Counted from the first letter of the stretch, positions 2,821-11,157 are shown. The stretch is 64,000 bases of DNA from Candidatus Bathyarchaeota archaeon (GCA_963806535.1 CAWDYC010000004.1:416001-480000), one strand, 5' to 3'. A program made the numbers and translations. Notes: a model not told the origin generated them from the sequence alone.

Positions 2821-3066
2821 TTGATAGAGGAGGAGATGAAAGTCGGTCCAAAAGGACAAGTTGTCATACCAAGAACAATGCGAAAAGCGCTTAAGATTAC
2901 TCCAGGCTCCAAAGTGTTATTCAAACTAGAAGACGGAAAGCTAATTTTGGAAAAACCAAGTTTCGATGCAGTAGCAGTTTTCAGAAAAATAGCTAAACAA
3001 ATCAACTACAACAAAGAAATAGATCCCCATCAATACGAAGAAGAACTCAAAGCGAGAAATCCATAA
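2821..3066 (+). CDS. AbrB/MazE/SpoVT-family antitoxin
   Basis: KVGPKGQVVIPRTMRKALKITPGSKVLF motif; overlaps the PIN gene start. Confidence 0.9.
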   Translation: MIEEEMKVGPKGQVVIPRTMRKALKITPGSKVLFKLEDGKLILEKPSFDAVAVFRKIAKQINYNKEIDPHQYEEELKARNP

Positions 3067-3461
3067 TGATTTATCTTGACTCCAACGTCTTTATTTACGC
3101 GACTGTAAACACAGAAGAGCTTGGAGAAAAAGCAAGATCTTTGCTTCAAAGAATACAACAGGGCGAAGAAAAGGCAGAAACCTCAGCGTTGACTTTCGAT
3201 GAAGTATTTTGGGCCATAAAAAAACTGGACTTTGAAGCGGCGCTCGAAGCCTCCCAAGCACTATTAAATTTTCCCAACTTGGAAATCATTTCTGCAGACA
3301 GAGACATAGCCTTATTTGCTCTTCAAATAATCAAGGAGTATCATCTGGCTCCGAGGGACGCAATTCATGCTGCGACGGCGATTGCAGCAAAGGCAGAAGC
3401 TGTAGTTTCGACAGATACACATTTTGATAAGATAAAAGAACTCAAACGAAGGCCACTATAG
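3066..3461 (+). CDS. vapC: VapC PIN-domain toxin
   Basis: IYLDSNVF...TFDEV...PRDAIHAATA...STDTHFD. Confidence 0.92.
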   Translation: MIYLDSNVFIYATVNTEELGEKARSLLQRIQQGEEKAETSALTFDEVFWAIKKLDFEAALEASQALLNFPNLEIISADRDIALFALQIIKEYHLAPRDAIHAATAIAAKAEAVVSTDTHFDKIKELKRRPL

Positions 3462-3485
3462 CCTTTAAACCCTCAAATAAAACTT

Positions 3486-3552
3486 TTTTCCGATAATATT
3501 TAGTACTGACGCATTAATGGAGATTGCTTTTTTGATTAAACATAGGTCCTCG
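3486..3552 (-). repeat. Dispersed vapC 3'-end remnant (repeat V, copy 1)
   Basis: Aligns by eye with 12031-12111, 15691-15791 and the vapC 3' end at 19987-20089. Confidence 0.7.
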
Positions 3553-3720
3553 ACTCAGTATTGGCGGTTTTTGTGGAAGTTTTGTTCTTTGTGTTTTGGG
3601 TTGCTTTTTTGTTTTGGAGCTTAAGTCTTTTGCAGGTTGCGTCTTTATTCGTCACTACGCGTCCCAGACGTCACATCACTACGCGTCATAAAACGTCACA
3701 GAACGTCACAATCCGTCTAA
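3553..3720. repeat. Intergenic repeat W ending in 10-bp-phased CGTC motifs
   Basis: Similar to 22562-22690 (TATTG.CGGTTTTT...GGAAG...TTTGCAGGTTGCGTC). GTC occurs at 3641, 3651, 3661, 3670, 3685, 3695, 3705 and 3715. Confidence 0.65.
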
Positions 3721-4432
3721 AGTGATAATTCCACGCGATTAACTCAAAAAATCCCTTTTAAAACAGCAGTTCAGCGAGGAAACCGCCTGCAAACTCCAAA
3801 AAATATCAAATGGCAGTTTAAGATAGAACCTGATCAGCTTCTAAAGTTGGAATAAAAGTCTTAAACCAGGGAGAAGCCTGGCAGTTTTTTTAGGCAAAAA
3901 TGGCGAAAGGTGGACGAATAAATATTAAAAGGTGACAATGGGGCTTTTGCATGCGAAGGAGAAAATCTTGAAGTGCACGTCTTTGAAGTAAAACTTGAAC
4001 CCTCTAAGATAGATTCCAATAGAATAGTCCAAGAACACACCGCCCGTTAACTAATCAAAAAGACGTCTGAACCAACATCCTAACTCACCAAACTCAGAAA
4101 AATTGGAAAAACCAACAGCAAACATTTTCTAACCCGGAAGTGGGTCAAGAGAGATTTGACTAAAATAGACTCAGTCCCTTATCATGCGGTACACAACCCT
4201 TAAACAATTTTTGTGCAGCTAAGGTTAAGGCAAAAAGTGGAAAATATACGCAAAATACACTTCAACTTGAAAAATGAGTTGATAGAGACTTTACCATTTA
4301 CGGCAAAGACATGCATAAGCCAATCGAAACATAGTCAAGAAAGCTTAAGTGTTAAACCATCCATACAAATGCCGAACGCCCATGAAGTTGAAAGGCTCGC
4401 CCATCAATCTGAATACATATGAAGTTTCTGAA

Positions 4433-5552
4433 ATGCTGACAAACAGGCATTTTCAAGAATTCAAAATGGATGAATTCGAAAAAATTCACCTTCCTCAGAG
4501 TATGAAGCCTTTCACAGATCTCAACCCCTTGGCTACCAAAGAGTTTGTTGTGGATGATAATAGAGGAGCAGTTTCCCCTTTGCCCTCTTTGAAGATGGAC
4601 GGCACTGACTTTTACCTTTCAGTTAAAGGAATCGGTTCAACAACCAATCCTTTTTCTCATCAGCTTCTCGGGAAAGATGAAATATGTAGCCTACTGAAAG
4701 ATTCCACACTAAAAGAAAGGATTGTTAATTCGGCGGAAACAGCTCCACGATACTTAACAGGGGAATTATGGCTAAGAGGTTCCCCATATGGGGGACAGGG
4801 ACTTGAGCACGCAACCACTTCGATGAGAGTGTCAGAAATGGCCGACCTTACCTCCATTCATGGATTTCGAATTGCACCCCTTGTGAAAATTGTTTTCCTT
4901 CCTGATGATCTAGAGAATGAAATCAAAAAAATATACTGGTACCGCAAATTCAGGGGACGGATGGTTCAGGAAACAAGATTGGTTCCGTCTAATGTGAGGA
5001 TTTATTTTCATTCAGGAAGCACAATCGGCAGTAACATACGATCAATCTTTAACATGTTTGAATTAGACAAGAACGATAAAGCATTAGAGTTTCTGAGAAA
5101 TTTCGTTAAGAGTGGAATTGCATACCTTACTCTTTTCGTGAGGACATTAAAAAGTAACGAGGATGGAACTTTCAGTGGATTGGATTTCTATGATGTCTGG
5201 CTAGACAAGGATGCAGTTCTCGCTCCTGACGGCACCATTTACTTTGTTGACCTTGAAGGCTTGGAATGGATAACTGTTGAGGAAAAGAAAATCTCGGAAA
5301 AGATAGACGACCAGATATACAGATCTCTGTACGAATTCATGTATGCTTATGAGCAGATAGAACGAGAACGATCCGCAAGGTTCGGAGACTTGACGGACAG
5401 GCAAGTGCAGTTTGAATATCTTCTCAAAGAGGCTCTCAAGGATGATGAGGTTGTTGACCTTGCAAGTGAGGGACAAAGCCTTAAACTGGTAATAGGTAAC
5501 ATATTAGGAGAACAAGCGTTTAACAAAAGAATTTCCAATCTTGGATCGGTGA
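4433..5552 (+). CDS. Uncharacterised protein with SelO/YdiU-like (pseudo)kinase-fold motifs; extra T at ~5520
   Basis: DDNRGA / LSVKGIGSTTNPFS / TRLVPSNVRIY / LDKDAVLAPDGTIYFVDLEG. Removing one T gives ...EQALTKEFPILDR* (TGA 5550-5552). Start codon uncertain. Confidence 0.6.
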
Positions 5553-5557
5553 TTGAA

Positions 5558-7117
5558 ATGAAATGCAACGACGTAAGAACATTCTTCACCCAAATAGCTG
5601 AAAAATCCGTTTCGATGCAAATTCAACCGTCCGATATGGATTTTCTCAGCAGCAACGGCTACCTTTCAGTGATGCAAAAAGAAGATTATGATCAGGCAGT
5701 AGCCGAAGTTTCAAACTTGACACAGATGAATACAGACTTGGTGAATGCAGAGAATGCTGACAGGAGCGCAAAGATCAGCTCTGGAAGAAGAGGAGAAGAA
5801 AACTCATTCAATCACATTTCTTTTTGAAGACAAAGAGAATAAAGAAGCTGAACGCGAAAAAGTAGAAAGCGAAAAAGACCATTGTCTCAAAAATGGAAGC
5901 TGACGTAACTGAAAGGGAAGCCACGATTAACGAGCTAATTCACAAGAAATCCAAAATCGACAGGATGGTGCCATATGACGGAAAATATTTGTCACTTACT
6001 GGTGTTGGAGTAATGATGCTAAACGATCTTATCGTAAGAAATTACAGGGTCTCTGATGAGGAATTTCCCGATTTTATAGAAGAAATCCAAACTACGTTCA
6101 GCGAATTGCGATCCATAGCAGAGAGAGGTAGCTATCACGTATCTAATCTGAAAATTAGTTTCCCAGAAATGGACCTCTCTCAACTCTGGAGCATATCGAT
6201 AGGTTTGGCCAAGCTTCAAGGCGACCCTAACCAAATTGGTCAAAGATTTCTTTTTGCACTTGATCTCCTCAAGCATTTCGATTGCACTCTTGAAAATAAG
6301 ATGATGGCAGGGGAAATTATGGCTGCCTCTAGGGCAGATCCCTCTCAAACAACAACAAATTCTGATCTTCAGAACTTGTCGGAAACTTTAGCTAAACTCG
6401 ATCACCAACTCAGGCATGACGCGCACGTTCCTAATCCGCTTTCAGCGGGCGTTGCTGCCACTATCCTGTTTGGGCGGAGATATGACGGCACTTTTCCAAC
6501 TGACCGATTTGTGGAATTTTCCAAAATGACTTCTTCGTATGAGTCAGCTGCAATACTCTCAATATTTAATGTGCCTTCAGACCAACTGGCTAGGCAAGTT
6601 CCAATCGTTCAGATTGCTTTTTAATTCCTGGGGATTTGAGGTATCAGAGGATACCGAGCTTGCTTCGGCTTATTTAGCGATTTCCGATTTGGGACCAGAA
6701 GACGTGAGATCGAAGTTAACAATAATTGAGAATGGGCTTAGAAATTATCTGGAGTATCCACTTGTGGCTTCTGCAATACTTGCTTCAATATCAACCCTTG
6801 AAGCTAATGAGACTCTTGACCTGATGGAAAAGGCATCTTTTTTGCTTGGATCTTACGTTAAAGATCTTGAACGATCTGAAGTGATAAGTCTTGCAGTTAG
6901 GATGATTCATGGAATCAAAAATGAACTTGTCAAGGAACTTGATCCAACCGCAACTATTGTGAAGACTCCAGTGCAGTTCACTTATGTACCAACAAACGTT
7001 TTCTTCATCTACTATGCGCCTCTGATTATTGCACACTCATCTTACCATTCAACATTCAGCGGCATTGGCGGCTATCATCCTGCCCATGTGCATGGTGTAG
7101 GAGGTTTCATGGGATGA
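5558..7117 (+). CDS. Uncharacterised helical protein (coiled coil, helical repeats, His/Gly-rich C-terminal tail); frameshifted
   Basis: ATG preceded by GGTGA. ORF pieces 5558-5827, 5893-6624 and 6539-7117 join across single-base shifts. Ends HSSYHSTFSGIGGYHPAHVHGVGGFMG. Confidence 0.7.
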
Positions 7118-8192
7118 ACTCAAAGTCCTTTGTTATCATACTTTCACTTTTCATAGCTCTCTTCGTGGCTCCTGTCGCCGCAGCTTACGTTCCCCATGTT
7201 GGAGACCACTTCAGCTATTACGAGGTTACAGATCTTGGAAGCGGCACCGGCGATTACACTGGATACACCGAACATGCAACATATAACGGAGCAGAAACAA
7301 TGAATGGCGTCAATACTGACGGAACTGTATCCGCTCACTATAGTTACTCCTATACCTGGAGCAACAGCACAGGCACAACAGAAACTGGGAATCCGTCTGG
7401 AGATTTCACGTTCTCACCAGTCACTTTTCTCTATGTTAATGGAACTGACGATCAGACAGGATATGTTAACCCGACTGTCTGGTTCGTTATGGATAACTCA
7501 ATCCCAGTGGGCGGTACCTTTTCTCTTCTGAACACAGAGATGACAGTCATATCCAAAAACTACAGCTACTATCTTCCGTCCCAGAACGAGAAATGTGAAC
7601 GTGATCTTTGCTCAAGGACAGTCGAGTTACGAGCGAAACGACGTATACGGACAATTCAGTGCCACCTATACATGGAAAGCCTACTTTGACCCATCCACAG
7701 GATACATCGTAGGATATAGCTATAATGAACACGATACCAATACTTCAGGAACAGGGTTCACCTACACCGAAAATCTGTATGTGACTTCAACTAGCTATCC
7801 ACTAACTGCTGCAGCCCCAAACAATACAAATGGAGGAACACCAACCCCGGTCCGCCAGCATCCCCGGCGGAACAACTCCAATCCAATCCCCATATTTTGG
7901 TTTCATTGCAGGAATAACCTTATTCATCGTAGTCATTGTTATCATTATAATTCTGATTTATGCATTTTCAAGAAGAAGCAGAAAAACTCTTCCCCAACAT
8001 TCATACCAACAGCCATATCAGCAACAGCCTCCGCCAGGTCCCCCTCCAGAGAATATCGATTTGACTCCAAAGCAACCGCCAGTACAGCAGATTGTGATTA
8101 AGGAGGTTGTGAAGGTTAAGTGCCGCTACTGCGGAGCACTAATAGACTCCACAGCTGAGACCTGTCCTATATGCGGAGCACCCAGAACATAG
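7114..8192 (+). CDS. Single-pass membrane protein: signal peptide, Y/T-rich ectodomain, TM, P/Q-rich linker, C-terminal zinc ribbon; frameshifted
   Basis: ATGA overlap with the upstream gene; three overlapping ORF pieces; CRYCG...CPICG at the C-terminus. Confidence 0.75.
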
Positions 8193-8207
8193 ATATCTAC
8201 TGATTTT

Positions 8208-8969
8208 TCAATTCCTTCTTTTTGTTTCTAAGTCCTTCTTAAAATACTGAAAAACCTGTCCAGACACCTTCATTTGCGCTTTCATGACATTATTTGAAGA
8301 TGGGATGTTATAGCGTGAAATTTCAGTGAATACTGAACGGGCATGGTTTGACTTGAGCCAGAGAAGTCGTGCATTGAGGATATCTTCACCTATGCCTATT
8401 CTTCTGTATTGAGGTTTCACGTAAAGAGAGTGCAGTCTTCCAATACCGTTGACAAGTGAGACCCAACCCAACCCAGCAATTTCGTTGTTTAACCTGACAA
8501 TATAGCATCTTTCTCCGTTTTTGAGTGCAACTTTTACCCACTTCTTGTTTATGCCTGGATGGGTTGAAGACATGAATTGTTCTATCTCACCTACGTTTTC
8601 CTTGTCTACTGTTGAAATTTCATAGCTGAATCTATGAGCAAGGGCAAGATGTTCAATGTCTATGGTGTAAATGTCATAGATTTCATTTTCAAGCTCAGTT
8701 TTCATCTCTGAGAAGAGAAAATTAAACTGTTTTAATCCATAAAAGTAGTCAAAAACTTCTCTTGATCTTGTGTAAATTGTTCCTCCTTTCTCAAAGTCGT
8801 CGTATATGAAAATACCTGAAATAGTGCCTTCAGAGGTTCTGGATACATAGGCTTCGCCGCCTATTTCAAGAATCTCTTTGATATGATAATTAAGATAAGG
8901 TTCAAAGAACGAAAAGCCAACAGGGAACACGAAATCGATATCTGAGGTATTCCTGTATTTGGGAAACAT
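8208..8969 (-). CDS. GNAT-family N-acetyltransferase (C-terminal GNAT domain)
   Basis: LHSLYVKPQYRRIGIG acetyl-CoA motif A; N..S motif B. Confidence 0.85.
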   Translation of the reverse strand: MFPKYRNTSDIDFVFPVGFSFFEPYLNYHIKEILEIGGEAYVSRTSEGTISGIFIYDDFEKGGTIYTRSREVFDYFYGLKQFNFLFSEMKTELENEIYDIYTIDIEHLALAHRFSYEISTVDKENVGEIEQFMSSTHPGINKKWVKVALKNGERCYIVRLNNEIAGLGWVSLVNGIGRLHSLYVKPQYRRIGIGEDILNARLLWLKSNHARSVFTEISRYNIPSSNNVMKAQMKVSGQVFQYFKKDLETKRRN

Positions 8970-9137
8970 GCATTTTTCTTTATCAACCCAATTTTTTACT
9001 GGTTAAATTATGGTTAGTATGAATTTCAATCTGATAAGCGTAGAGTTCTCATCTGGTTAAAGTGTACGCCCCTTGGTAGAATGCACTTTTAACCAAAAAA
9101 ATTCTTATCTCTCAATTACAAAGTGTTATTGATAATT

Positions 9138-10279
9138 TTGAACTTAATCGAGTTTGAAGCTAAGCAAGTGTTGCTGAAGTACGGTATTCCGATTCCAAAG
9201 GGAATTTTAATCTCTGACTCAAAACAGACCGTTTCTGCCTTGAGGTAACTTAAAGCCTCCTTACATGGTTAAGGCTCAGGTTCCCGTCAGCGGAAGAGGG
9301 AAAGCGGGCGGGATAATACCTGCCAACTCGATACTTGAGGCGCAAGATGCCGTAACCCGACTTCTAGGAGCAGAAATAAAGAGTTTTCCCGTTAAGCAAG
9401 TGCTAATAGAAGAAAAACTTGCAACCAAAAAAGAATTGTACTTAGGTTTTACGGTTGATAGATTCAACCGTTGCTATGTTATGTTAGCCTCCAAAATGGG
9501 AGGCATGGACATTGAGGAAGTGGCAGAAAAAACTCCGCAAGCCATCGTCCGAACACCAGTTGATGCTCAGTCAGGATTCCGTTCTGTTGATGCATTATCG
9601 ATTGCGAAAAAACTTGGTTATAGCGGTGATCAACTTGTGGAATTATCAAGTGTCATTTAGAAATTATATCGAGCTTCCGTTGAAAACGACGCTGAAATGA
9701 CTGAAATTAATCCCTTAATAGAAACAGACGTCCGGGGGTTTTGTGGCTGCCGATGCTCGAATGGTAATTGATGATAATGCTCTCTTTAGGCATCCTGAAT
9801 ATGAGGCAAAACAAACTCAAACGCTCTCGTCGATGGAGACTTTGGCTTTAAAGAACAACTTGGCTTATGTGAAGCTTGACGGTGACATAGGCGTAGTTGG
9901 CAATGGCGCTGGATTGGTAATGGCTACTGTTGATTTGCTAAATTATTATGGAGGCAAACCAGCAGACTTTTTAGATATCGGCGGCGGCGCAAGCGTGGAA
10001 GCTATTAGAGTTGCCCTACAAATTGTCCTTGAAGATCCAGATGTCAAGTCTGTACTTGTTAATGTGCTAGGTGGAATAACTCGCTGTGATGAGGTTGCAA
10101 GAGGCATAATTGAAGCCGTCAAAGACGTCAAGGTCAAAAAGCCATTGGCTGTAAGGCTTGTTGGCACAAACGAAAAGGAAGGTCAAAAAATTCTCGCCGA
10201 CGCAGGAATAAGCGTCTTGGATAGCATGGAAGAAGCCGCTAAACAGGCAGTAAAGTTTGCAGCAGGAGAGAAACAGTAA
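9138..10279 (+). CDS. sucC: Succinyl-CoA synthetase beta subunit (frameshifted)
   Basis: TTG start MNLIEFEAKQ, VKAQV..GRGKAGGI, EINPL, DDNALFRH, GNGAGLVMAT, DFLDIGGGA, GGITRCDEVA. Confidence 0.9.
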
Positions 10280-11157
10280 TGGGAATCTTAATTGATGCTG
10301 GCACAAGAGCGATTGTTCAAGGAGTAACTGGAAAACAAGGCAGTTACCAAACTAAACTAATGCTTGATTATGGCACGAAAATATTAGCAGGCGTCTCTCC
10401 CGGAAAGGGAGGAAATACAATTGATGGACTGCCAGTTTTCGATACTGTAGAAGAGGCTGTTGATTCATATTCGCCTGATGCTTCGATAGTTTTTGTTCCT
10501 GCAAAGTATGCTCAAGATGCAGTCCTAGAAGCTATTGCAAGCAAAATCAAAACAATAGTTGTGATCACTGAGCATATTCCAATAAAAGACTCAATAAACA
10601 TGATTGCCAACGCGGCTCAATCGCAAATTTCTATTATTGGTCCAAACACGCCTGGAATAATCACGCCCGGAGAGTGTAAACTTGGAATAATGCCTGCCAA
10701 CATTTTTAGTCCAGGCACTGTTGGTTTGGTCTCCAGAAGCGGTACCTTAGCCTATGAAGTAGCTGCTGGCCTAAGAGCCAAAGGTTTGGGAGAGTCAACC
10801 TGCTTTGGTGTAGGCGGCGACCCAGTTGTTGGCTTGAATTTTATTGATGCGTTGAAACTTTTCAAAGAAGATGCAAAAACAAAAGCTGTGGTTTTAATTG
10901 GCGAAATCGGCGGCAATATGGAAGAGCAAACAGCAGAATACTTAACTAGACATCGGTATCCTAAGCCTGTTATAGCTTATGTGGCTGGCCGCTTTGCGCC
11001 AACTGGCAAGCGAATGGGCCATGCAGGAGCAATAATTACGGGTAAGCAAGGTACTGCACAAAGCAAAATTGAGGCATTTTCAAGCGCTGGAGTTAAGATT
11101 GCTGAGAAGCCAAATGATATTGCCAGATTAGTCAGTGAATCGCTATTTAAAAACTAA
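10279..11157 (+). CDS. sucD: Succinyl-CoA synthetase alpha subunit
   Basis: VQGVTGKQG, IGPNTPG, SRSGTL, GEIGG, RMGHAGA phospho-His motif. Confidence 0.95.
   Translation: MGILIDAGTRAIVQGVTGKQGSYQTKLMLDYGTKILAGVSPGKGGNTIDGLPVFDTVEEAVDSYSPDASIVFVPAKYAQDAVLEAIASKIKTIVVITEHIPIKDSINMIANAAQSQISIIGPNTPGIITPGECKLGIMPANIFSPGTVGLVSRSGTLAYEVAAGLRAKGLGESTCFGVGGDPVVGLNFIDALKLFKEDAKTKAVVLIGEIGGNMEEQTAEYLTRHRYPKPVIAYVAGRFAPTGKRMGHAGAIITGKQGTAQSKIEAFSSAGVKIAEKPNDIARLVSESLFKN

Follow-up and report, generated by a model that had tools for sequence, protein, structure and literature searches.

A four-gene cassette of uncultured archaea with a kinase-fold protein neighbouring SelO/YdiU and a candidate acceptor tail

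We analysed a 64,000-nucleotide stretch of the genome of a Candidatus Bathyarchaeota archaeon (GCA_963806535.1, CAWDYC010000004.1:416001-480000; hereafter the window, with positions counted from its first letter) and found in it four adjacent genes that form an undescribed, self-contained system of uncultured soil, peat and wetland archaea. The product of gene 1 is best read, from its predicted structure, as a cytoplasmic enzyme of a previously undescribed kinase-fold family standing beside SelO/YdiU. Its companions are a helical protein with a disordered C-terminal tail (gene 2), a membrane protein with a zinc ribbon (gene 3) and a GNAT acetyltransferase (gene 4). Our favoured reading, to which we would give an even chance, is that gene 1 would transfer nucleotidyl groups in the manner of SelO, as part of a membrane-associated module for protein modification whose probable substrate is the tail of gene 2.

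A first-pass annotation, made from the sequence alone, had described the locus as an operon headed by a SelO/YdiU-like pseudokinase, tightly coupled to a helical protein with a His/Gly tail and to a single-pass protein with an ectodomain and a zinc ribbon, with a GNAT acetyltransferase converging on the operon. All three partners were recovered in our analysis, the first as gene 2, the second as gene 3 with the ribbon at its C-terminus, and the third as gene 4.

The fold of gene 1 is closest to SelO/YdiU

The AlphaFold2 model of gene 1 was confident (predicted local distance difference test, pLDDT, 93.9; predicted template-modelling score, pTM, 0.92) and showed the proposed kinase-like fold, with SelO/YdiU as the closest solved structures. 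A Foldseek search against the PDB placed YdiU/SelO first (E-values of 2.4e-4 to 3.3e-3, probability 1.00, ~400 columns), followed by NIS siderophore synthetases and then by protein kinases. An all-against-all structural search of 48,161 chains put P. syringae SelO (6eac_A) at rank 1 (Z 13.7, root-mean-square deviation (rmsd) 4.3, 268 aligned), with SbnC and AcsD next (12.3) and kinases at 9.3 or lower. The YdiU/SelO entries 9jym, 6lna_A and 6eac_A reached Z 15.2-15.3 over ~255 residues (rmsd ~4) in a second structural comparison, which gave 10-13.4 for NIS synthetases and up to 9.8 for ordinary kinases. The model aligned from residues 7-12 to residues 328-336 of SelO/YdiU chains that are 460-478 residues long, covering the kinase-like domain only.

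The label "SelO/YdiU-like pseudokinase" thus holds for the fold, which is nearest to SelO/YdiU, but not for family membership, as the Pfam SelO model does not recognise gene 1, and "pseudokinase" can be kept as a word for the fold only. Searches with PF02696 gave no match in the whole source genome, with control genomes positive, and none in 201 Thermoproteota genomes, with positive results in four control genomes. Since the PF02696 model does not match, gene 1 belongs to a neighbouring family and is not a SelO member.

Profile comparison was performed against a SelO alignment of eight sequences, namely E. coli selO and seven plasmid-borne homologues. Here, hhalign set the DGNRS...VKGxG segment of the gene 1 family on GDGRA...LKGxG of SelO (score 27.1, E 0.016), and the path extended through RLVPSNVR / RVAPSHLR only at a low accuracy threshold. 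None of thirty column shuffles exceeded 21.6, and reversing the alignment gave 16.1. Comparison of the family with the single E. coli SelO sequence produced a spurious C-terminal match and was set aside.

Gene 1 represents a small family with a conserved putative active site

Other sequence searches with gene 1 returned no Pfam match at E up to 1 for the window open reading frame (ORF) or up to 0.1 for an intact orthologue, and no NCBIfam or PADLOC match. Only hits with E above 1 were obtained with phmmer against PDB chains, while the best match of the gene 1 profile among PDB sequences was an unrelated hydroxylase (E 0.9), which was rejected. An exhaustive HMMER search of 1.84 billion cluster representatives recovered only 119 at E up to 0.001, indicating that the family is small. 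Genes 1 and 2 and the outer domain of gene 3 are without a model in the libraries searched, and gene 1 constitutes a new family in the kinase-like superfamily. No description of this family was found in the literature searched, including a 2026 preprint on new kinase-like families; supplements could list it.

In the alignment of 39 family members, some only 20% identical, the invariant columns are R61, G83, G85, G137, P166, Q196, R199, P202, S203, R206, D277, G284 and D290, and K82, K276, L291 and E292 are near-invariant. N60-R61 is invariant or nearly so, and E128, on the strand ahead of helix 141-153, is nearly invariant. The motifs quoted in the first-pass annotation are real and fall on such columns: R61 (DDNR), K82-G83-x-G85, R199/P202/S203/R206 (RLVPSNVR), K276-D277 and D290-L-E292. 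Their order, with the Lys followed by the R-x-x-P-S-x-x-R pair, is indeed that of SelO/YdiU. R199 and R206 lie 7 residues apart with P-S between them, like R170 and R177 of E. coli SelO (RVAPSHLR), where R170, S174 and R177 are invariant in the SelO alignment. According to PMC8097203, Lys113, Arg176 and Arg183 of P. syringae SelO hold the gamma-phosphate of a "flipped" ATP, and Asn253 and Asp262 hold the metal. Judged by its sequence against that account, gene 1 retains a predicted SelO gamma-phosphate clamp, comprising the Lys and both Arg residues.

Contigs from an RNA library of relatives (run X20) overlap parts of genes 1, 2 and 4. Because DNA can occur in such libraries, this is only a hint that these genes are expressed in the relatives. 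One genome of the window's family carries two gene 1 matches on the same strand ~1.2 kb apart (G486:C6:845703-846431 and 847653-848813), one full length and the other spanning residues 145-388, which may be a tandem duplicate or a rearranged copy.

Gene limits and organization of the locus

A 492-amino-acid (aa) ORF was confirmed in the window at 4349..5827. A word-indexed search of 5.8 billion proteins yielded 1,353 relatives of it among the 8,000 candidates scored; the best 120 of the 1,353 are mostly 389 aa long and span only 70-80% of the query ORF, and several relatives bear the source name Candidatus Bathyarchaeia. The six relatives inspected share the C-terminus ...GEQ[R/H/S]LT..FPI.D[RWF], while window positions 5517-5552, read one frame over, encode RLTKEFPILDR followed by a stop (TGA 5550-5552), and the window has one extra base at 5516 relative to the four closest loci (L027-L030). 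The C-terminus of the 389-aa relatives at 5517-5552 and the extra base at 5516 identify the 492-aa ORF as an in-frame fusion of genes 1 and 2 created by an extra base at 5513-5516, which agrees with its earlier description as an artefact. The proposed gene 1 stop (TGA ending at 5552) and gene 2 start (ATG 5558 behind GGTGA) were likewise found by direct reading and match the N-termini of orthologues (MKC.D...); the gene 2 frame opened by this ATG begins MKCNDVRTF..., as in intact orthologues. The start of the operon had been placed at 4433 and has to be moved upstream: by the N-termini of its relatives, gene 1 begins at ATG 4382 (MKLKGSPINL...). The resulting features are:

4382..5552 (+): gene 1, 389-aa kinase-fold protein, delimited by the length and C-terminus of its relatives and by its model (pLDDT 93.9)
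5548..5560 (+): Shine-Dalgarno-like GGTGA and gene 2 start; overlaps the gene 1 TGA at 5550-5552, with the ATG at 5558-5560
5558..7117 (+): gene 2, ~518 aa; alpha-helical repeats accompany a small N-terminal domain and an antiparallel coiled-coil hairpin
6941..7114 (+): C-terminal tail of gene 2, aromatic and His/Ser/Tyr-rich, with HPAHVHGVGGFMG at its end and a terminal Gly; predicted disordered
7114..8192 (+): gene 3, with a signal/anchor, a ~230-aa extracytoplasmic domain, a transmembrane (TM) helix, a Pro-rich linker and a zinc ribbon
~7896-7967 (+): TM helix of gene 3, from the hydropathy of an intact orthologue
~8112-8183 (+): C-terminal zinc ribbon of gene 3 (Zn_Ribbon_1, 25.5 bits)
8208..8969 (-): gene 4, 253 aa, with an unassigned ~130-aa N-terminal part and a C-terminal GNAT domain; convergent with gene 3
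~8298-8540 (-): GNAT domain of gene 4 (Acetyltransf_1, E 6.1e-9, 36.6 bits)

The four genes travel together as an accessory cassette

A scan with one genome per species recovered 254 relatives, and the best 80 loci were examined. They come from records titled Bathyarchaeota/Bathyarchaeia, Nitrososphaerales, Thaumarchaeota, Gagatemarchaeum, Conexivisphaerales and Thermoplasmata, many of them from peat, bog or soil projects. Of the 80 loci, 69 hold the complete set of four genes. Among the 11 incomplete ones, nine are truncated by a contig end beside the absent genes, one (L048) has a partial gene 3 and no GNAT, and one (L086) retains gene 3 only as a remnant comprising the TM helix and the ribbon. 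Clustering of the ORFs of these loci yielded four families present in 80, 74, 72 and 71 loci, followed by SucC as the next real family in 11; the GNAT is conserved beside gene 1 in 74 loci. Two gene orders were observed, g1>g2>g3> with a convergent GNAT and g2>g3>g1>GNAT. The picture of an operon headed by gene 1 therefore fits the first order but not the second. The co-occurrence of gene 1 homologues with genes 2-4, a point raised in the first-pass annotation, extends across three archaeal groups and both orders, and in more distant loci it takes the form of a fused gene 3-GNAT and a gene 2-like protein. Neither of the two outcomes that the first-pass annotation named as refuting, a predicted structure lacking a kinase-like fold and homologues that do not co-occur with genes 2-4, was observed.

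Eight of 201 sampled genomes of the class carry gene 1. The gene 2 profile matched the same eight genomes, strongly in seven and as a 32-residue piece at a contig end in one; it also picked up a fragment in one further genome, which is 80% complete, along with two 18-bit matches in this sample that were taken as chance. Five of 150 other genomes of the window's family carry the cassette, and it was not found in the window's own genus in two overlapping samples (0 of 11 and 0 of 5 genomes). The cassette is an accessory trait. It is scattered across phyla, in records labelled as peat, bog and soil metagenomes, which suggests that it has been exchanged within that habitat. PADLOC returned no defence family at E up to 0.1 for five proteins; a defence-island or mobile-element reading was rejected on this ground and on the housekeeping flanks of seven distant loci, described below.

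In the two loci of the g2>g3>g1>GNAT order that were inspected, a ~900-aa protein lies beside the GNAT (L012:4185-6986 and L013:4271-6970), with two AAA+ ATPase motifs and a Lon-protease-like C-terminus recognised by eye. It is not conserved beside the cassette elsewhere.

Gene 2 ends in a conserved disordered tail with an invariant glycine

Orthologues of gene 2 are ~520 aa long. The model of the intact L027 protein (pLDDT 83.7) is confident and helical over residues 1-453, where it shows alpha-helical repeats in addition to a small N-terminal domain and a long antiparallel hairpin (residues 54-134). From residue 454 it is disordered, with pLDDT <50 at 454-470 and 477-518. No match to gene 2 was found in Pfam, NCBIfam or PADLOC. 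Foldseek gave none at E up to 0.001, the best being designed alpha/alpha toroids (E 0.02-0.08), and the ESM Atlas returned only the protein's own unnamed archaeal clusters. The all-against-all fold search matched generic coiled-coil hairpins over residues 38-142.

The tail is the most conserved part of this otherwise fast-evolving helical protein. A terminal Gly is present in all 111 complete gene 2 ORFs (90 of 90 of the main type, with 45 distinct tails, and 21 of 21 distant ones). In an alignment of 46 sequences, the most distant only 16% identical, H509 and H511 of the HPxHxH motif (H506-P507-x-H509-x-H511) are invariant, and H492, H506 and P507 are nearly so. In four loci, the gene 2 reading frame already closes behind ...IRMIYGQ or ...IRLIYGH and the tail is encoded by a separate ORF of ~125-148 aa that starts with its own CxxC...CxxC zinc ribbon and ends in ...HGVGGF.G, indicating that the tail is a separable module. 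These ORFs are:

L086:8273-8662: separate tail ORF
L091:7645-8025: separate tail ORF
L095:7634-8017: separate tail ORF
L183:4319-4762: separate tail ORF

Most gene 2 proteins start with M-K-C-x-D/E, and Cys is the third residue in many of the distant forms too (for example MRC, MNC, MDC, MKC). The same protein thus carries a conserved N-terminal Cys and an invariant C-terminal Gly.

Genes 3 and 4 are fused in distant relatives

Gene 3 orthologues (~290-350 aa) begin with a signal/anchor; their outer domain, which bears N-x-S/T sequons, is followed by a strong TM helix, a Pro-rich linker and, at the end, a zinc ribbon (PF13240, 25.5 bits against a cut-off of 25) whose four Cys, arranged as CxxC...CxxC, are present in 61 of 63 orthologues. 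The outer domain had no match in Pfam, NCBIfam or PADLOC. Gene 4 orthologues are ~260 aa long and contain a GNAT domain (PF00583, 36.6 bits against a cut-off of 20.7). The CoA-binding motif R/Q-x-x-G-x-G/A is found in 64 of 72 of them and reads RRIGIG in the window; a search of the ESM Atlas with gene 4 returned GNAT clusters only.

A metagenome scan seeded with a branch of 30-50% identity gave a distant set of 80 loci, 37 of which contain gene 1 at 168-307 bits with the main-family profile. Of these 37 loci, 33 have an ORF recognised by the gene 3 and/or GNAT profiles upstream of gene 1, and the other four start at a contig end; a weak gene 2-like ORF follows gene 1 in 26, and the other 11 end too soon. 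All eight upstream ORFs inspected are single open frames that join the gene 3 outer domain and TM helix to a whole GNAT, without the zinc ribbon. This fusion indicates that the two proteins are physically tied, with the GNAT at the inner face of the membrane. In the archaeal form, the GNAT is separate and the zinc ribbon of gene 3 occupies the position that the GNAT holds in the fusion. The flanks of seven distant loci are unrelated housekeeping genes (such as uvrAB, pckA, hisA, hisIE and MTAP), one of them the archaeal repair gene nreA.

Proposed mechanism and alternative readings

Most likely, the four proteins cooperate in modifying a protein at the cytoplasmic face of the membrane. By analogy with the SelO account in PMC8097203, gene 1 would bind a nucleoside triphosphate in the "flipped" pose, in which Lys82, Arg199 and Arg206 would hold the buried beta- and gamma-phosphates, while Asp277 and Asp290, together with Glu292, would hold the metal. 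The alpha-phosphate would be the one attacked, and gene 1 would transfer a nucleoside monophosphate and release pyrophosphate, with no phosphate transfer. The flexible His/Tyr/Ser-rich C-terminal tail of gene 2 is the candidate acceptor, and the GNAT acyltransferase would act on the same complex at the membrane. The zinc ribbon of gene 3 probably docks a partner, and through the outer domain of gene 3 the module may be linked to something extracellular. A co-fold of gene 1 with ATP, Mg and gene 2, run without controls, scored 0.02 against a mark of 0.32 and speaks neither for nor against this arrangement.

Several observations weigh against this proposal. The hhalign signal to SelO is weak (probability 2.8%) and stops short of the catalytic loop, gene 1 matches neither the Pfam SelO model nor any other, and hidden Markov model searches of PDB sequences were empty. 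The residue equivalences between gene 1 and SelO were read from sequence order and secondary structure. At the position of the metal-binding Asn of SelO, gene 1 has no Asn and carries D-K-D instead, and no conserved helix-C Glu is evident in helix 141-153. From D275-K276-D277 to the DFG-position Asp there are 13 residues, against 9-10 in SelO, in a region that hhalign left unaligned. Part of the gene 2 tail is moderately hydrophobic (Kyte-Doolittle 1.67; distant forms, 1.9-2.25), and if it spanned the membrane, the His-rich end would be extracellular and beyond the reach of gene 1. Two further points in this direction concern the NIS synthetases, which score nearly as high as SelO and which the D-x-E after strand 8 of gene 1 resembles more closely.

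Those two points belong to the main alternative, itself rather unlikely, in which gene 1 works like a NIS synthetase or SidJ and adenylates a carboxylate, most obviously that of the C-terminal Gly of gene 2, the acyl-adenylate then being passed to an amine or thiol; if true, proteins would be ligated through their C-terminus with no E1 enzyme involved. In the structural searches, NIS synthetases rank second over the whole gene 1 model (AcsD Z 13.4, SbnC 12.3, IucA 12.6), D290-L-E292 is conserved, and the terminal Gly of gene 2 is found in every one of the 111 copies. The pairing of a GNAT with a NIS-type enzyme is also known, the PDB title of DfoC being acetyltransferase/NIS synthetase. In NIS synthetases, as described in PMC9356276, the alpha-phosphate is attacked by the carboxylate while pyrophosphate stays deeply buried in the active site, and Asp460, Glu463 and Glu464 of DesD bind a second Mg2+. 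Where DesD has the Mg/ATP ligands His440, Glu442, Asn443, Asp460, Glu463 and Glu464 (H-x-E-N...D-x-x-E-E), the sequences of the gene 1 family offer D-K-D...D-L-E as putative counterparts. A kinase-fold precedent is SidJ, which, according to 10.1101/2021.04.13.439722, has a SelO-like nucleotide pose and adenylates a protein Glu carboxylate. Against these stand the higher scores of SelO/YdiU over every NIS synthetase and the R-x-x-P-S-x-x-R motif, which belongs to SelO. Gene 1 also lacks the NIS N-terminal domain, since its model aligns only from ~135 onward of the ~550-600-aa chains; it has no IucA_IucC Pfam match, and the tail of gene 2 has no ubiquitin-like domain. A more elaborate form of the same idea, which we consider a long shot, is that the cassette might be a protein-conjugation system assembled from parts not known in that role: gene 1 would adenylate the C-terminal Gly of gene 2, doing the job of E1 with an unrelated fold, and the glycyl end would be passed on, possibly via a coenzyme A thioester as acyl donor for the membrane-tethered GNAT, to an amine at the membrane, belonging either to a gene 3 lysine or to the head group of a lipid. 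If so, archaea would possess an Atg8- or ubiquitin-like anchoring owing nothing to E1/E2 enzymes.

An ordinary phosphotransferase, that is, a protein or small-molecule kinase acting on gene 2, gene 3 or a metabolite, is a distinctly unlikely identity for gene 1. The kinase-like fold with its beta-3 Lys and DFG-position Asp would suit one, and hundreds of protein kinases match at Z 8-9.8, but gene 1 has no H-R-D...N catalytic loop, it carries the D-N-R loop in place of the glycine-rich G-x-G-x-x-G loop, and all of its best structural matches are alpha-phosphate enzymes. Its two invariant SelO-type Arg residues, moreover, would fall where the flipped gamma-phosphate lies. Synthesis of a siderophore-like or amide-linked small molecule by gene 1 and the GNAT, with genes 2 and 3 serving export, sensing or scaffolding, appears very unlikely. 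A NIS-type enzyme with an acyltransferase does follow the logic of hydroxamate siderophore pathways (PMC9356276), and the His-rich tail of gene 2 could bind metal. However, only the four families recur, with no hydroxylase, decarboxylase, transporter or receptor gene conserved beside the cassette, the seven distant loci have unrelated housekeeping flanks, and the GNAT of distant relatives is tethered to the membrane protein. We regard it as highly improbable that gene 1 is a catalytically dead pseudokinase scaffolding the other three proteins. The absence of canonical kinase motifs would fit such a role, but K82, R199, R206, K276, D277 and D290, which occupy nucleotide- and metal-binding positions, are conserved at 20% identity, and charged or polar residues kept over such a distance are the pattern expected of an active site.

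Frame breaks in the window copy

We mapped the frame breaks against the four closest loci (L027-L030; 88-92% DNA identity to the window), which are intact. Within 4.6 kb, the window has seven single-base insertions. Besides the one at the junction of genes 1 and 2, three lie in gene 2 (5777, 5873 and 6593), splitting it into four frame pieces, and two in gene 3 (7588 and 7851), which also carries 9 extra bases in frame at 8010. The last, at 8955, lies in the fifth codon of the GNAT ORF, and the true GNAT start may therefore differ. None of the seven is within a long homopolymer, and there are no stop-codon substitutions or deletions among them. Next to the cassette, the gene that we named sucC (succinyl-CoA synthetase beta subunit) from a reading of the translations is also split (9265..9660 and 9743..10279, +), while the alpha subunit (10279-11157) is intact; a split housekeeping gene speaks for assembly errors across the contig.

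Short-read contigs from four public runs come from relatives of the window strain (best share of sampled words 0.15). Among the matches listed, they lack the extra base at 8955 in all four runs, at 5513/5514 and at 6593 in three runs each, and at 5876 in a single run; the insertions at 5777, 7588 and 7851 have no entry among these matches. The breaks in the window are very probably assembly errors. As the contigs are not from the window strain itself, real pseudogenisation is possible, and the seven frame-breaking insertions in 4.6 kb and the accessory, patchy presence of the cassette, which implies that loss is common, would fit a genuine decaying gene cluster. We nevertheless consider decay unlikely: the adjoining housekeeping gene sucC is split too, the breaks are single-base insertions only in a copy that is still 88-92% identical to its relatives, and another metagenome-assembled genome has a cassette fragmented in a like manner, with 10 ORF pieces over all four genes (L038, 6923-11535).

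Neighbouring features of the window

Rfam and tRNA scans of window positions 3000-9500 gave no match. Between the GNAT gene and sucC, an intergenic stretch at ~9025-9065 is near-identical among the closest relatives and is likewise without an Rfam or tRNA match; a 19-base degenerate motif derived from it occurs in five of 186 loci, each from a close relative. A shared promoter or leader is one possible identity for this stretch. Upstream of the cassette, overlapping ORFs of 81 and 131 aa at 2821-3066 and 3066-3461 (+) resemble by eye what we take to be an AbrB/VapB-type antitoxin and a PIN-domain VapC toxin.

Significance of the cassette

SelO is among the few "pseudokinases" that have been shown to perform a different chemistry, namely AMP transfer with a flipped ATP. 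With the SelO phosphate clamp apparently kept, the catalytic loop changed and a structural position between SelO and the NIS synthetases, the gene 1 family would help to show how the kinase fold was retooled for alpha-phosphate chemistry. The substrates of bacterial SelO are scattered; gene 1 has three fixed partners, one of which offers a sharply defined candidate acceptor (a disordered HPxHxH tail with an invariant terminal Gly), which makes the substrate question directly testable. The cassette also provides a first functional handle on four "hypothetical" families of Bathyarchaeia, non-ammonia-oxidising Nitrososphaerales relatives and Thermoplasmata.

Comparison with known systems

With E1 and ubiquitin-like systems (ubiquitin, SAMP/UbaA, ThiS, MoaD), whose properties we give as general background, the cassette shares a Gly-ending protein beside a predicted adenylating enzyme. 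It differs in that the gene 2 model is helical to residue 453 and then disordered, with no beta-grasp domain, that no E1-like gene is present in the cassette, and that the last Gly of gene 2 alone is invariant, rather than Gly-Gly. SidJ, the Legionella glutamylase, has a kinase fold and a SelO-like nucleotide orientation (10.1101/2021.04.13.439722); by description, it differs in being calmodulin-dependent and in having a second, "migrated" pocket, and none of the three fold searches with gene 1 placed it in the top 50 rows.

NIS synthetases (AcsD, SbnC, IucA, DesD, DfoC) resemble gene 1 as the second-best matches over its full model, in an alpha-phosphate chemistry with buried pyrophosphate (PMC9356276), in an acidic residue after the metal-binding Asp and in the GNAT as a frequent partner. 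They are ~200 residues longer, with an extra N-terminal domain, whereas gene 1 has no IucA_IucC match and siderophore pathway genes were not found near the cassette.

SelO/YdiU (PF02696; 6eac, 6lna, 9jym) differ from gene 1 at ~12% identity and ~480 aa against 389 aa. Gene 1 has D-K-D where they have the N-T-D-N catalytic loop, D-L-E-G in place of D-Y-G, and 117 residues instead of 63 between the Lys and the Arg pair; it ends in ...FPILDR at 389 aa, without the SelO C-terminal domain and terminal Cys/Sec. Gene 1 is always accompanied by three partner genes, and it occurs in an archaeal phylum without canonical SelO in the 201 Thermoproteota genomes searched. Across these differences, the two share the D-G/N-R loop, the K-G-x-G after strand 3, the R-x-x-P-S-x-x-R motif and the DFG-position Asp, and SelO/YdiU are the best structural match to gene 1 across the whole kinase-like domain.

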